64,000 bases of DNA from a phage. The stretch lies in sequence record OZ346228.1. One strand, written 5' to 3'. The translations under genes and the position numbers were made by a program. The first letter of the stretch is position 1. Each line of letters begins with the position of its first letter. Under the pieces are notes generated by a model. That model saw only the letters and a program-made list of their open reading frames with translations. It was not told where the DNA came from and did not search any database. Positions 20,693-24,035 of this stretch are shown one piece after another.

Positions 20693-20938
20693 ATGAAAAG
20701 CAATAAAGGTTATAACGGTTACAAAAACAAAACTCATTGGAATGTAAGCCTTTGGATTAATAACGATGAGTCATTGTACCGGTTGGCCCAAGGATTTATT
20801 AACGCTAATGCTAATCGTAATGATGCGGCGCGGGATATGATGCTTTTTCTGGAGCTAACCGGACAAGATAAGACCCCGGACGGCTTCAAGTACAGCACTA
20901 CGGCGATCCGTGCCGCGATGGTTGGAATGAAACACTAA
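20693..20938 (+). CDS. hypothetical protein
   Basis: RBS AAGAGG; last gene of rightward block. Confidence 0.55.
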   Translation: MKSNKGYNGYKNKTHWNVSLWINNDESLYRLAQGFINANANRNDAARDMMLFLELTGQDKTPDGFKYSTTAIRAAMVGMKH

Positions 20939-21984
20939 AAGCACATAGCCGCCAGATCTCAGAATTTACGTACGCTCACCAGTCTATAGCCTGCTAAGTA
21001 TTTATTCCAACCATAGAATAACGGAATAGTCAATACCTGCATAAAATAATTATTCGTGTAAACTGCATAACATAAATCGGCTAGGATGTCAACATTTTTC
21101 GTAAACAGCTCGAAATTATAACGGTGAGTTATAATAAACAGAGAAATCTTTAGTCGTCTAATGTTTACTGTACATTACTATACTGACTGGAATCATTAGA
21201 TGACTAAGAGAAAGATAAGAAATCATTAACAATGCAATTGTTTTATTCGTAACAATAAGGCAACTATGCAAACGGATGGCATGGCGCGACGGAGTCGCGA
21301 CATAATATAAAAGCAGTAACCATCACCCCCGTGATAGTTTGTCTGCAAACTATTAATCAGATCATAGTTGCCTTGTATTTAGTTAATCATGACATAACAA
21401 GCAAGGCAACTATAGATCTGCTAATAGTTGCCCTGCTTTTATATTATGTCATAGATTATTAGCCTGTTAATTGTTAGTCAGTCAAATCAACAACGTTATC
21501 ATTTCAGTCTTTATTGTTGTTGATCGTTATTGTTATCATGCAAACGAATGGCATGGCTTATCATTTTTGAGTAAACAATCTATACGTGAACAGTGAGGCA
21601 TGCAATAGTAAGGGCGGGAATAATGAGAGTGTAAACTGTCAGGCATGTCAATTATATCAATCGTGTCAGTTATGTCACCATTATGTCAGACAAGTTTTTC
21701 TCCTCTTTGTCAAGTGCTGCATGAAAAATTTACAATCTTGTATGGTAGCATTTTTGCGGCCCTGTTTACATTCAGTATTGTATGTATAATCCTTGTTGTG
21801 TGGGCGTTTAGACGTCTAGACGGTCAGAAGTCTGCAGGTTAATATCTAATCTATCGGCTGCTAACTATATCCCACACAAATAGTAAGAAATATAATTGTT
21901 ATGTGCGTAAACAGTAACTCATGTTATCAATCCCTGTATGTATCGCCAGTGGTGCGCATAATGGGTATTATGTTAAATTGCCCG

Positions 21985-22128
21985 TAATGATAATGGTTCT
22001 CACAATGATAGGTATTCTCATTCCCCCACACAAAATAGATTGCAAATGTTGTGCCACTATGTGAACGGCCTCACCTATTAATTTGCCTCACTGCCTCGAT
22101 ATTTGAGAATTATCATAAGAATGAGAAG
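21985..22128. promoter_or_regulatory. Further copies of the Fur-box-like motif inside the 2.2-kb non-coding region
   Basis: AATGATAATGGTTCTCACAATGATAGGTATTCTCATT and inverted GAGAATTATCATAAGAATGAGAAG. Confidence 0.3.
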
Positions 22129-23125
22129 TATTCCCATTTCGTCCGCCTGGCAGCACTCCAGTCGCTACGGCTCAGAACAGGGCAGAATTGTGTCCATTCA
22201 GATATTTCTGTCTGGCTCTTCAGGTCTGTGTGGGAAAAGTCCACCTCTCTGGCGGGGCATGGGGTCATGACGGGAAAATTGCAGGTCAATTAAAAAATTT
22301 ACGTGGTGTATGAAGCGCTCTTCAGGTAAGGCATGTATTATGGGATGAAACCCTCTTCAGGCAATGATATTTGTGGGTGTGATATTTGCTGGAAAGCCAG
22401 ATATGACGGGACTCCCGGCGGGGCAGGGGTAGTACAGACAGGGGAAATATGGAGGATGTGGTTAGGTGAATTGATCAGACAGGTAGAGTATGGAATATGT
22501 TACAGGTATGTTAAATAGGGCGGCTGAATATCTGTAGGATTTGTGTGTAAAATCAAAGACTTAAGTGGTGTTGTGGTATTTTCTATAAATAATTCAAGTT
22601 TAATAGGTAATATTTGTCTCTATTCGCTTTGTGTGGTAAACAGATTCAGATGAGATTGGTTTACAAGCGTATACATAATATACAAATTAAAGATACAAGA
22701 AACCCCCCTCCCCCTTCGGCTACCATTCACCTTTTCCTCTGACTGGTACTTAAACACTTATTCAGACTCTTCAGGTTATCACCCATATATCATATGGCAG
22801 TGACTGGTGTCCTCCGGCCCCTCTTTCGTCACCCGTCCGCTTCGCCATGCTAATGCCATAGCCAATGGTTCGGTTGTTCACCCTGTTCACTCAGGTGTAT
22901 CTCCATACCCCTTCAAAACGAAGAGAACAGAAAACCCGAATTACTCGGTAAAAGAAAAGAGAAGAACTTAATTTTATCAGGATAGGCAAGAATGTCAAGG
23001 CATGACTGCTCACTAAACAAGCAAACAGTCATGTGTGGGAGGTAAGTGATTGTGGTGGTAGGAAATTTAGTTGAAAGATGTGTTATAGGTGCTTCCAGCA
23101 CTTTAGCCGGGCAGCTAATTGTGTG

Positions 23126-23341
23126 TCAGTCCAGCGGTTCATCCTCTACTTCACTGAAATCAATGTTCATGGTCTCTTCCCAACCATCGATCTCAGCACA
23201 AGAGTGGAGTTCTTTAGGGTTTACTCCTAAAGCCTCAGCAACAGAGTCTATATTTAACACCTCTGGCAGGTATGATTCATCAAATTCAAGGTAAATCAGG
23301 CCACGAGTGTTGTCAGCTCCACCAAATATTTCTATCTTCAT
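23126..23341 (-). CDS. hypothetical acidic protein
   Basis: RBS GAGGAG; last gene of leftward array. Confidence 0.5.
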   Translation of the reverse strand: MKIEIFGGADNTRGLIYLEFDESYLPEVLNIDSVAEALGVNPKELHSCAEIDGWEETMNIDFSEVEDEPLD

Positions 23342-23462
23342 AAAATCTCCTCTGGAAATGAGAGTGTGAACAGGGTTTTATACGTCCCAATGCACAGGAA
23401 TTATGCACGTTTTCCTCTTCAGGCCATGCTTTAGCATGAGGAACCTGTGTGGGCTCGGTGCT

Positions 23463-23675: not shown

Positions 23676-24035
23676 GTTCCACCCGTGAGTATTCCGGCAA
23701 CAGCTGCTATGGACGTAATGATCATCAGGATCACCACTAAAACTTCGGACAATGTTCTCATTGTGTACTCCATATTCTACAAACTATGTGTGGATACTAT
23801 CACTGGATCGGTAATGTGTCAACAGAAACGCCGCGAGGGTTTGGTTAAAATCCGAGCGTATGGTGATTTGGGTCAAAACGGACGTGCGTTCTCGCTACGC
23901 TCGAAAGAGAGATTTGTTTGTAGGAAGCTCTTAAACGCTCTGTAATGAGATTATCTGTCCAAGGTATGCAATCGTGCACCAGATAAAGAAAAGGACGCCA
24001 CAGAGCGTCCTAGGTGTCTTAAATTTGATATTTTG

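Follow-up and report, generated by a model that had tools for sequence, protein, structure and literature searches.

The 2.2-kb interval at positions 20940-23125 of the 64,000-nucleotide stretch of phage DNA analysed here (the window; record OZ346228.1) is probably the genome-terminus region of the phage, that is, the concatemer junction of a genome packaged in unit lengths with a short direct terminal repeat, in which tandem arrays and a large palindrome act. That the region holds fixed genome ends and a terminal repeat is very probable from the records of related phages, and the layout is best read as like that of T7. Of the three options in the original prediction (non-coding RNA, origin, packaging signal), the last is supported by the virion DNA ends of close relatives, which map to 21689 and 22147. 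A terminus with a short terminal repeat is an ordinary kind of feature.

The window phage is a Vequintavirus (rV5-like coliphage), and the interval is the counterpart of the "non-coding" box at 104013-106618 in rV5 coordinates, a "2.6-kb non-coding region" published in 2013 without explanation. As originally described, it is convergent and free of genes, rightward ORFs stopping at 20938 and leftward ORFs at 23126. Vequintavirus homology begins only at 20945, right after the stop codon of the last rightward gene. In a sensitive blastn search of 50,697 phage records with the whole region and two conserved elements, only Vequintavirus matched, the few matches elsewhere being 22-29 nt long and due to chance; a tblastn search for an equivalent site in other genera, made with the 71-aa product of the last leftward gene, found this protein confined to Vequintavirus. 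The region coincides with the maximum (not the minimum) of cumulative GC skew and with the convergence point of transcription, a polarity that is terminus-like or simply an effect of convergent transcription; the rV5 authors put skew changes down to transcription direction. Packaging signals ordinarily take up much less than about 2.2 kb, so the region probably has other functions besides. Its features, with the adjoining genes, are as follows.

20693-20938, + strand: last gene of the rightward block (81 aa, DUF7249 / phrog_871)
20940-21255: AT-rich spacer with scattered GTAAAC motifs, evolving at a near-neutral rate (pi 0.083)
21259-21267, - strand: ATAGTTGCC site 0, just before D3 copy 1
21266-21285, + strand: copy 1 of the 20-bp direct repeat D3, ATGCAAACGGATGGCATGGC
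21299-21450: compound palindrome of ~150 bp, strongly conserved (pi 0.0098)
21339-21318, - strand: predicted terminator-like hairpin, followed by ACUGCUUUUA
21399-21413 / 21424-21438, + strand: alternative hairpin, a predicted intrinsic terminator, followed by TTTTATATT
21538-21557, + strand: D3 copy 2
21571-21640, + strand: GTAAACAGT array (GTRAAYAGT-type units), 15-16 bp period, three clear units
21637-21688, + strand: T(A/G)TGTCA array, 9-11 bp period, ~2-7 copies among phages
21689-22147: direct terminal repeat of 459 bp, a single copy in the present collapsed or concatemer-form sequence
22148-22180: variable indel patch, setting in only ~8 bp beyond the right end of the repeat, after 8 largely conserved nt (TGGCAGCA)
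22216-22275, + strand: module 1, consisting of CTCTTCAGG, then TGTGTGGG, then the G-run GGCGGGGCATGGGG
22318-22430, + strand: CTCTTCAGG copies 2 and 3 (22318, 22353) and module 2, which ends in CTCCCGGCGGGGCAGGGG
22700-23070, - strand: ultra-conserved unit of 371 bp (pi 0.012)
22767, + strand: CTCTTCAGG copy 4, inside the 371-bp unit
23126-23341, - strand: last gene of the leftward block (71 aa, phrog_12108), genus-restricted and used as a coding control
23415-23423, + strand: CTCTTCAGG copy 5 with TGTGTGGG after it, located in the spacer that separates the final two leftward genes

Records of relatives show the virion DNA bounded on each side by an exact direct repeat. Those of EdH4 and ECP2309 carry the 459-bp repeat, corresponding to 21689-22147 of the window, at each end; the Gotham record has a repeat_region annotated at 1-459 and 136567-137025, and the YN3 record includes the repeat twice (458 bp matched), with one copy at the record start. 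The ECP2303 record finishes on the terminal repeat, that of Pr121LW begins at the equivalent of 21689, those of bov10K2 and bov22_2 begin at the equivalent of 22147, and CM1 has a tandem duplication whose junction lies exactly at the right boundary. These boundaries are identical across records of several laboratories, and in EdH4 the ends were placed where reads "ended abruptly". Since the relatives' virion DNA begins at 21689 and finishes at 22147, the segment 21689-22147 would stand at both ends of the packaged molecule and as a single copy in the replicating or collapsed form that the present sequence represents; for the window phage the ends are taken over from relatives, with which it shares 93-98% identity across the repeat. 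Two PhageTerm-based papers have described vequintaviruses as "circularly permuted" or headful-packaged, and revised records from one of these two studies now begin exactly at the boundary. Conservation and indel breakpoints also fall at both boundaries. Approximately the first 45 and the last 45 bp of the repeat are conserved, and islands at 21696-21735 and 21949-21978 are kept even in the Seunavirus PVP-SE1.

Two tandem arrays occupy the DNA immediately to the left of the repeat, and both vary in copy number between phages; like the terminal repeat itself, they had not been noticed in the original prediction. The GTAAACAGT-type array reaches 8-10 units in rV5, Murica and MiataMamis, and GTAAACAG is also found inside the terminal repeat, at 21762 and 21907. 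The last TGTCA unit abuts the start of the terminal repeat, the boundary lying between TGTCAG and ACAAG. Spacings were measured by script because Tandem Repeats Finder caught only fragments of these degenerate arrays. By eye, further degenerate copies of the GTAAACAGT type can be seen within 21571-21640. The TGTCA array contains GTGTC and was considered as a set of T7-type primase sites, an idea that was dropped, as priming there would run away from the repeat.

The repeats reported originally lie 130-430 bp from the left boundary; the best reading of them is a palindrome, bordered by the 20-bp direct repeat and with a terminator-like hairpin on each strand. The perfect 12-bp inverted repeat (ATAGTTGCCTTG/CAAGGCAACTAT) is present at 21364-21375 / 21402-21413, with a loop of 26 nt and not of 32 nt as first given; outside it, and absent from the original prediction, a perfect 18-bp inverted repeat (21299-21316 / 21433-21450) forms the outer arms. 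The motif GGCAACTAT, counted three times, is real and in fact has four sites, on the + strand at 21259 and 21405 and as the reverse complement at 21364 and 21424. These four exact copies fall within 175 bp, there is just one more exact copy in the 64 kb, and with at most one mismatch the window holds 24 against 13.6 expected. The pair GCAAACG(G/A)ATGGCATGGC recurs as described, at 21266 and 21538 (a distance of 272 bp). In phage FV3 exactly the D3-to-D3 interval is missing and with it the whole palindrome, which is therefore either dispensable or was lost from FV3 during clone-based sequencing. The folding z-score of the palindrome is -9.2, and in a sliding z-score scan with 120-nt windows nothing else in the region folds better than shuffled sequence. 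The + strand hairpin at 21399-21438 (-19 kcal/mol, followed by UUUUAUAUU) is marked as a terminator in the Murica record; together with the - strand hairpin it provides a predicted two-way intrinsic terminator, with a hairpin and U-tract on each strand. The rV5 authors had expected two-way terminators here and had found none.

To the right of the repeat, CTCTTCAGG occurs in five copies, all on one strand, within 22216-23423; these were absent from the original prediction, and the window as a whole has 7 where 0.36 would be expected. The G-run of module 2 is kept in PVP-SE1. CTCTTC/GCTCTTC is the EarI/SapI recognition sequence, a match that we take to be coincidence. The 371-bp unit occurs in ~118 vequintavirus records, in all of them with an identity of 96.8% or more. 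The diversity of this unit and that of the palindrome compare with 0.06-0.11 in the repeat and spacers and with 0.043 at third codon positions in the neighbouring gene. On the - strand the unit includes the best sigma70-type promoter of the region (22998-22971, TTGACA-16-TAAAAT with the TG of an extended -10), and conservation runs from just upstream of this promoter to a G5AG6 run and T-tract at 22714-22696 (G5AG6 itself at 22714-22703), no further. A 7-bp inverted repeat upstream of the promoter was seen by eye, and a weak hairpin lies at 22948-22936. The transcript strand is G-rich, with 8 runs of at least three G and no C runs, which places it in the top 0.5% of the window; the G5AG6 site is among the three best G-quadruplex scores in the 64 kb, and the length of the C/G tract differs between phages. 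Measured outward from the two boundaries, the palindrome and this promoter-to-G-run unit lie at distances of 240-920 bp.

The interval encodes no protein. The original prediction had seen neither an RBS nor a coding motif here, which agrees with tests of ORF conservation and codon position, and a conserved protein gene spanning the region, which would have overturned that account, was looked for and not found. In a comparison of 11 genomes, no conserved ORF with third-position bias was detected. Missed small genes were considered as a rival reading, since between 1 and 14 short CDS are annotated here in several records (as in the automatic annotation of Murica gp129, PMBT16 and MiataMamis), the A51.2 record has a "putative membrane protein" here, and one ORF, 21921-22064 (47 aa), is intact in all 11 genomes. 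This ORF, the sole one so preserved, has substitutions distributed 7/11/9 over the codon positions, 4 synonymous versus 23 non-synonymous, whereas in the neighbouring real gene at 23126-23341 14 of 18 substitutions fall at position 3. The remaining ORFs are each disrupted in one or more of the 11 genomes, most of them in many; the equivalent of Murica gp129 (22333-22518) is intact in a single genome and frameshifted in the rest, and the 371-bp unit carries indels that are not divisible by three. We therefore regard missed coding genes as extremely unlikely.

The arrangement can be compared with T7, for which we computed the corresponding features as a control: a 160-bp terminal repeat, eight CCTAAAG heptamers adjoining it at 175-340 and three inside it, and a leftward promoter close to the end. 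Processing of T7 DNA is reported to involve duplication of the repeat and a hairpin intermediate close to it (PMC4281155). The present region shares with T7 the short, exact direct terminal repeat, a zone of ~0.9-1.4 kb without genes inside the ends, a regularly spaced series of short motifs adjoining the repeat and extra copies within it (here GTAAACAGT, TGTCA and GTAAACAG), and a host-type promoter near the end, aimed at the repeat and the DNA end. It differs in belonging to a myovirus of ~136 kb with no phage RNA polymerase, in a repeat three times longer and in genes that point to the ends from both sides. The motif sequences are unrelated, there are two arrays of different periods and variable copy number, and the palindrome is ~150 bp long and also resembles a two-way terminator.

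Among myoviruses, the large terminase of rV5 has been reported as closest to those of the KPP10 and Felix O1 types. According to the literature, Felix O1-, PAK_P1- and KPP10-like phages have related large terminases, and their genomes are non-permuted, the repeats measuring a few hundred bp: the Felix O1-like UAB_Phi87 has a 608-bp terminal repeat, Bal31 digestion having been used to test for terminal repeats, and the termini of PAK_P1- and KPP10-like phages were mapped from read coverage. None of these groups has DNA similarity to the present region. Closer at hand, the Salmonella phage PVP-SE1 (Seunavirus, of the same subfamily) has a gene-free convergent gap of 2,268 bp at the matching genome position, which we located through the annotation table of its record. 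It contains collinear conserved islands (repeat start, repeat middle and G-run), a perfect 18-bp inverted repeat with a spacer of ~180 nt, and repeated units containing CCTGAAGAG, which in PVP-SE1 stand in tandem at 23-24 nt and are not dispersed as here. Most of the sequence is not alignable, and neither a counterpart of the 371-bp unit nor a GTAAACAGT array was seen there. Judged by these sequence features, another genus shares the architecture.

Of the functions first suggested, an origin or a non-coding RNA is possible only for the 371-bp conserved unit. For the repeats an origin finds no support: consensus scans of the region gave no exact DnaA box and a single IHF-like site, and the four ATAGTTGCC sites, which the original prediction's form of an origin would make iterons together with the palindrome, are the arms of that palindrome and not a direct iteron array. 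An origin could take another form in the unit, where a transcript made by host RNA polymerase from 22998-22971 would form an R-loop or hybrid G-quadruplex at G5AG6 and prime DNA synthesis, with parallels in the mitochondrial LSP-CSB II element and in ColE1. The features of such an R-loop origin, a promoter and then a G-rich transcript, are present in the sequence; the conserved block spans this stretch and ends with it, the G-quadruplex score and the variable tract length also speak for it, rV5 encodes a T7-like replisome, and the CSB II mechanism is documented (PMC3488243, PMC4176368, PMC5027508). As in LSP-CSB II, the non-template strand downstream of a promoter is G-rich and closes with a G-tract and T-tract, the tract length being polymorphic; the polymerase, however, would here be the multisubunit enzyme of the host, and the distance is ~265 nt as opposed to ~100 nt. 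Human CSB II is a tract of the G5-6AG6-8 type, and the likeness concerns a short, low-complexity tract and may be due to chance. Further points speak against an origin: the polarity of transcription and skew is that of a terminus and not of an origin, forks starting here would collide head-on with both operons, the unit is undetectable in PVP-SE1, and no initiator gene adjoins. On balance we consider it improbable. A related reading, improbable as well, makes the unit an element for replication or processing that is primed by transcription and has no described equivalent in phages; in it, host RNA polymerase could stall at G5AG6 through an RNA-DNA hybrid G-quadruplex or R-loop, and the 3' end of the RNA could prime synthesis toward the repeat, leading to a replication start or to duplication of the repeat.

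The unit might instead specify an RNA of ~265 nt (~22964 to 22700, - strand) whose action depends on sequence (as in base-pairing or in a protein decoy), and the palindrome could be part of another RNA, located where the rightward operon has its 3' end. Nearly every nucleotide of the unit is constrained without a coding signature, the promoter is strong, with its extended -10 and preceding 7-bp inverted repeat, and the sharp limits of conservation fit a unit running from promoter to 3' end. However, the unit folds no better than shuffled sequence on either strand (z -0.7 and +0.1), its proposed 3' end lacks a canonical terminator, and its variation is too low for covariation. Rfam 15 gave no match in the 64 kb at the gathering threshold, the sole match at E up to 5 being to a microRNA model with 17.6 bits, where the cut-off is 80, and ARAGORN found no tRNA or tmRNA. 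The literature searched contained neither RNA-seq nor other expression data for vequintaviruses. The suggestion of a non-coding RNA applies to the conserved unit as a possible, though unlikely, reading, and finds no known RNA family in the region, where the palindrome alone folds beyond shuffled sequence. That the interval is nothing but a buffer in which transcription of two convergent operons terminates would agree with the terminator-like hairpins and T-tracts on both strands of the palindrome and with what the rV5 authors expected; but terminators take tens of bases and not 2.2 kb, and the identical record ends at 21689/22147, the 459-bp repeat, the periodic arrays and the conserved unit would all be left unexplained, which makes a buffer without a packaging role very unlikely. 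Fur-box-like motifs, also reported originally, are weakly supported: seven matches with at most 6 mismatches exceed the mean of 1.0 in shuffles, but the best have 5-6 mismatches in 19, no close match to the 19-bp consensus GATAATGATAATCATTATC was found in the region, and all come from one patch, 21983-22025, which is a direct repeat of 17-18 nt annotated as repeat_region in some records.

Returning to the packaging terminus, we propose by analogy with T7 that the terminase or an accessory specificity factor would bind the GTAAACAGT and TGTCA arrays, as candidate sites, and the conserved ends of the repeat, and would nick both boundaries on opposite strands; DNA synthesis would then copy the repeat, so that each packaged genome receives a full copy. 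The palindrome may serve as a two-way transcription terminator that stops the convergent operons from entering the junction, and a hairpin or cruciform formed by it might in addition be an intermediate of processing. On the other flank, the CTCTTCAGG motifs and the conserved unit would be further putative cis-acting signals. The chances that the specific roles assigned here to the arrays and the palindrome are the right ones appear to us about even.

The "non-coding region" of rV5-like phages, noted since 2013 without a function, hereby gains a concrete explanation. It helps to settle a conflict about packaging in therapeutically used coliphages, in which fixed ends and a 459-bp repeat stand against headful packaging. 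Knowledge of the true ends and of the cis-acting elements matters for genome orientation, annotation, engineering and rebooting, and the true ends bear on the risk of generalised transduction by candidates for phage therapy. Finally, the arrays, the palindrome and the promoter-to-G-run unit are defined targets for a terminase specificity factor in a terminase family that has no recognised small subunit.

A megablast search with 20940-23125 matched 122 phage records, mostly at 90-95% identity, all belonging to one rV5-like coliphage group (Vequintavirus), and a more sensitive blastn search added no further records. In rV5 the counterpart is the gap between ORF163 and ORF164, where the authors anticipated a two-way terminator but did not find it, and noted a skew change that they ascribed to transcription direction; the Murica announcement mentions a comparable gap of 2,554 bp. 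The region is named already, as a "non-coding region", in the literature and GenBank records, as is, separately, a 458/459-bp repeat. In the literature searched we found no paper giving the region a function, and no description of its link with that repeat, of variable-copy arrays abutting the repeat boundary, of a constrained palindrome and conserved promoter-to-G-run unit, or of subfamily-level conservation of the layout. Eighteen to 19 'Campylobacter phage' records (MG0656xx, e.g. MG065653, MG065659 and MG065666; host Campylobacter jejuni) also contain this region of E. coli vequintaviruses (about 87-95% identity) along with the flanking gene that is confined to the genus, and look like mislabelled entries or coliphage contaminants of Campylobacter phage preparations. 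At the left edge, similarity to other vequintaviruses starts only at 20945, a few bases past the stop of an 81-aa DUF7249 gene (20693-20938); rV5 and others carry there a different gene (ORF164, 139 aa) and about 340 extra non-coding bases, a gene-cassette exchange that reaches the very border of the non-coding region.

The original prediction of an ORF-poor stretch between convergent blocks was borne out, the interval being gene-free. Across 12 aligned genomes, all but one of the ORFs of at least 40 aa within the interval were disrupted in at least one other genome, most of them in many, and the counterpart of Murica's annotated gp129 (22333-22518) was intact in only 1 of 11. The sole ORF intact across genomes (21921-22064) carried 7, 11 and 9 substitutions at the three codon positions (4 synonymous versus 23 non-synonymous changes); in the real neighbouring gene, used as a control, 14 of 18 substitutions fell at codon position 3. 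The region is non-coding, and missed genes, which do not fit this evidence, are highly improbable. Nucleotide diversity (pi), computed over the same number of genomes, shows two elements, the palindrome and the conserved unit, to be strongly constrained.

Features of the region (pi, nucleotide diversity)
21256-21452: 20-nt direct repeat and palindrome, pi 0.0098
Left of the terminal repeat: array 1, GTRAAYAGT-type units, strict 15-16 bp period
Left of the terminal repeat: array 2, T(A/G)TGTCA units, 9-11 bp period
21689-22147: terminal repeat, pi 0.060
21696-21735: island 1 shared with Salmonella phage PVP-SE1, start of the repeat, promoter-like TTGTCA...TACAAT
21949-21978: PVP-SE1 island 2, 90% identity, E 3e-6
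22251-22275, + strand: G-quadruplex-propensity peak, repeated module GGCGGGGCA(T/G)GGGG
22420-22444, + strand: G-quadruplex-propensity peak, same module
22700-22724, - strand: G-quadruplex-propensity peak, G5AG6
22700-23070, - strand: conserved unit, pi 0.012
22998..22971, - strand: predicted sigma70-type promoter, TTGACA-16-TAAAAT, extended -10
Spacers: pi 0.083-0.11
23126-23341, - strand: neighbouring gene (71 aa), pi 0.0056 at codon positions 1 and 2, 0.043 at position 3

Several relatives' records were opened within the region. EdH4 and ECP2309 carry at each record end an exact 459-bp repeat that maps to 21689-22147, and the EdH4 paper reports "short terminal redundancies of 458 bp". The Gotham record has repeat_region annotations at 1-459 and 136567-137025; YN3 holds the repeat at two places, one being the record start; the end of ECP2303 falls on it; Pr121LW starts at the equivalent of 21689; and the revised records of bov10K2 and bov22_2 begin at 22147, exactly the repeat boundary. 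Packaging statements are in conflict, since two papers (PMC8407724, PMC13211470) describe vequintaviruses as circularly permuted or headful from PhageTerm, whereas PMC6563267 and GenBank MT682716 give fixed ends and a 458/459-bp repeat. We regard the recurrent base-exact boundaries in the deposited sequences as probably outweighing the PhageTerm reports. Placed from these close relatives, the genome ends and terminal repeat very probably lie in this region, which supports the packaging signal offered as one option in the original prediction.

The repeat aligns cleanly across the 12 genomes; conservation drops exactly at its left boundary and about 8 bp past its right one, and within it about the first 45 and last 45 bp are conserved. 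In the record of Shigella phage CM1 (MK962749; locus L014, roughly 1200-2330), 64 nt of the TGTCA array and the entire 459-bp repeat are duplicated in tandem. The copies join precisely at the right boundary (...CGTCCGCC|GTATCC), which would be the expected junction were this position a genuine DNA end in vivo; the duplication may have arisen through genuine end-joining or through misassembly of the terminal repeat. I29 (ON286975), judged from match length alone, has a longer match like that of CM1. The seemingly hypervariable stretch left of the repeat consists of two tandem arrays. GTRAAYAGT-type copies picked up by a motif search number three in the window phage, against 8-10 in rV5, Murica and MiataMamis, and the last T(A/G)TGTCA unit adjoins the first base of the repeat (TGTCAG|ACAAG).

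The analysis upheld the feature as real and its repeats as meaningful, with some corrections to their first description. The 12-bp perfect inverted repeat exists, its arms 26 rather than 32 nt apart, and is enclosed by a previously overlooked 18-bp perfect one; the 20-nt direct repeat was confirmed (copies 272 bp apart), and ATAGTTGCC/GGCAACTAT has four copies, alternating in orientation, rather than three. Also missed was CTCTTCAGG, with five same-strand copies in the region and seven in the whole window against 0.36 expected; TGTGTGGG, GTAAACAG and TGACATAA are further recurring families. The proposed Fur-box-like motifs showed a weak resemblance (5-6 mismatches in 19, one patch only), an impression due to a 17-18-nt direct repeat (AATGATAATGGTTCTCA / AATGATAGGTATTCTCA) at 21986-22020 inside the terminal repeat, annotated as 'repeat_region' in some records of Danish wastewater phages. 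In its homologous gap, PVP-SE1 (NC_016071; locus L022) has a near-perfect Fur-type 7-1-7 palindrome, TGATAATACTTATCA, at 23310-23330 and a perfect one, TGAGAATTATTCTCA, at 23713-23727, of which the window holds only degenerate versions (21986-22020 and 22103-22135); judging by sequence, these may form a binding-site family for some regulator.

Most records match the palindrome at 95% identity or above, apart from those with an apex insertion (as in rV5) and from FV3. As single-stranded DNA the palindrome has a folding z-score of -9.2, and nowhere else in the region does folding surpass that of shuffled sequence. Terminator-like hairpins with T-tracts are predicted on both strands, one of which the Murica record labels a terminator. 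The 20-nt direct repeats sit on either side; FV3 (NC_019517; locus L017, 920-1090) lacks exactly the interval between them (21266-21557) and therefore the whole palindrome, which could reflect natural recombination or palindrome loss in clone-based sequencing. That the region serves only as a termination buffer does not fit the evidence and is very unlikely. The replication origin also offered in the original prediction finds no support in the palindrome: exact DnaA boxes are absent, the sites lack an iteron-like arrangement and the polarity of the skew is that of a terminus.

An origin at the conserved unit is a minority possibility, its layout recalling the mitochondrial LSP-CSB II primer-formation element. 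The unit, at least 96.8% identical throughout about 118 records, begins upstream of the region's best sigma70-type promoter and ends in a G5AG6 tract followed by a T-tract; its transcript strand has eight runs of at least three G and no C runs, and all of the top three G-quadruplex scores across the 64-kb window come from this non-coding region. That it yields a non-coding RNA acting through its sequence is conceivable but rather doubtful; the predicted RNA showed no unusual stability on folding. Directly upstream of the -35, a 7-bp inverted repeat (ATGACTG-N17-CAGTCAT, 23010-23040, - strand) looks like a candidate operator for a dimeric regulator.

We consider it likely that the feature is of an ordinary kind, namely the terminus and packaging region of a short-terminal-repeat phage. 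Under the T7 scheme (concatemer processing and repeat duplication are described in PMC4281155, citing Molineux and Chung & Hinkle), replication would give concatemers with one repeat copy between genomes, the terminase or a specificity factor would recognise the periodic arrays and conserved repeat ends and cut at 21688/21689 and 22147/22148, and DNA synthesis after cutting would duplicate the repeat. The palindrome would plausibly shield the junction from the rightward operon and, by analogy with the T7 hairpin intermediate, may take part in processing. The T7 sequence, checked directly, has a 160-bp repeat, eight CCTAAAG heptamers in an adjoining array with three further copies within the repeat, and a gene-free left-end 925 bp in which a host promoter at position 224 points leftward. 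Published comparisons place the rV5 large terminase nearest to its counterparts in KPP10- and Felix O1-type phages; these groups have short terminal repeats, or termini mapped from coverage. In Salmonella phage PVP-SE1 (Seunavirus) the convergent blocks at the matching genome position are separated by a gene-free gap of 2,268 bp, mostly not alignable to the window but keeping three collinear islands, the third a G-run, CTCCCGGCGGGGCAGGGG. This phage also has its own 18-bp perfect inverted repeat, unrelated in sequence, whose arms are 183 nt apart; in addition, CCTGAAGAG (reverse complement of CTCTTCAGG) occurs there in three tandem units of 23-24 nt. At the subfamily level it is therefore the architecture, not the sequence, that is conserved.
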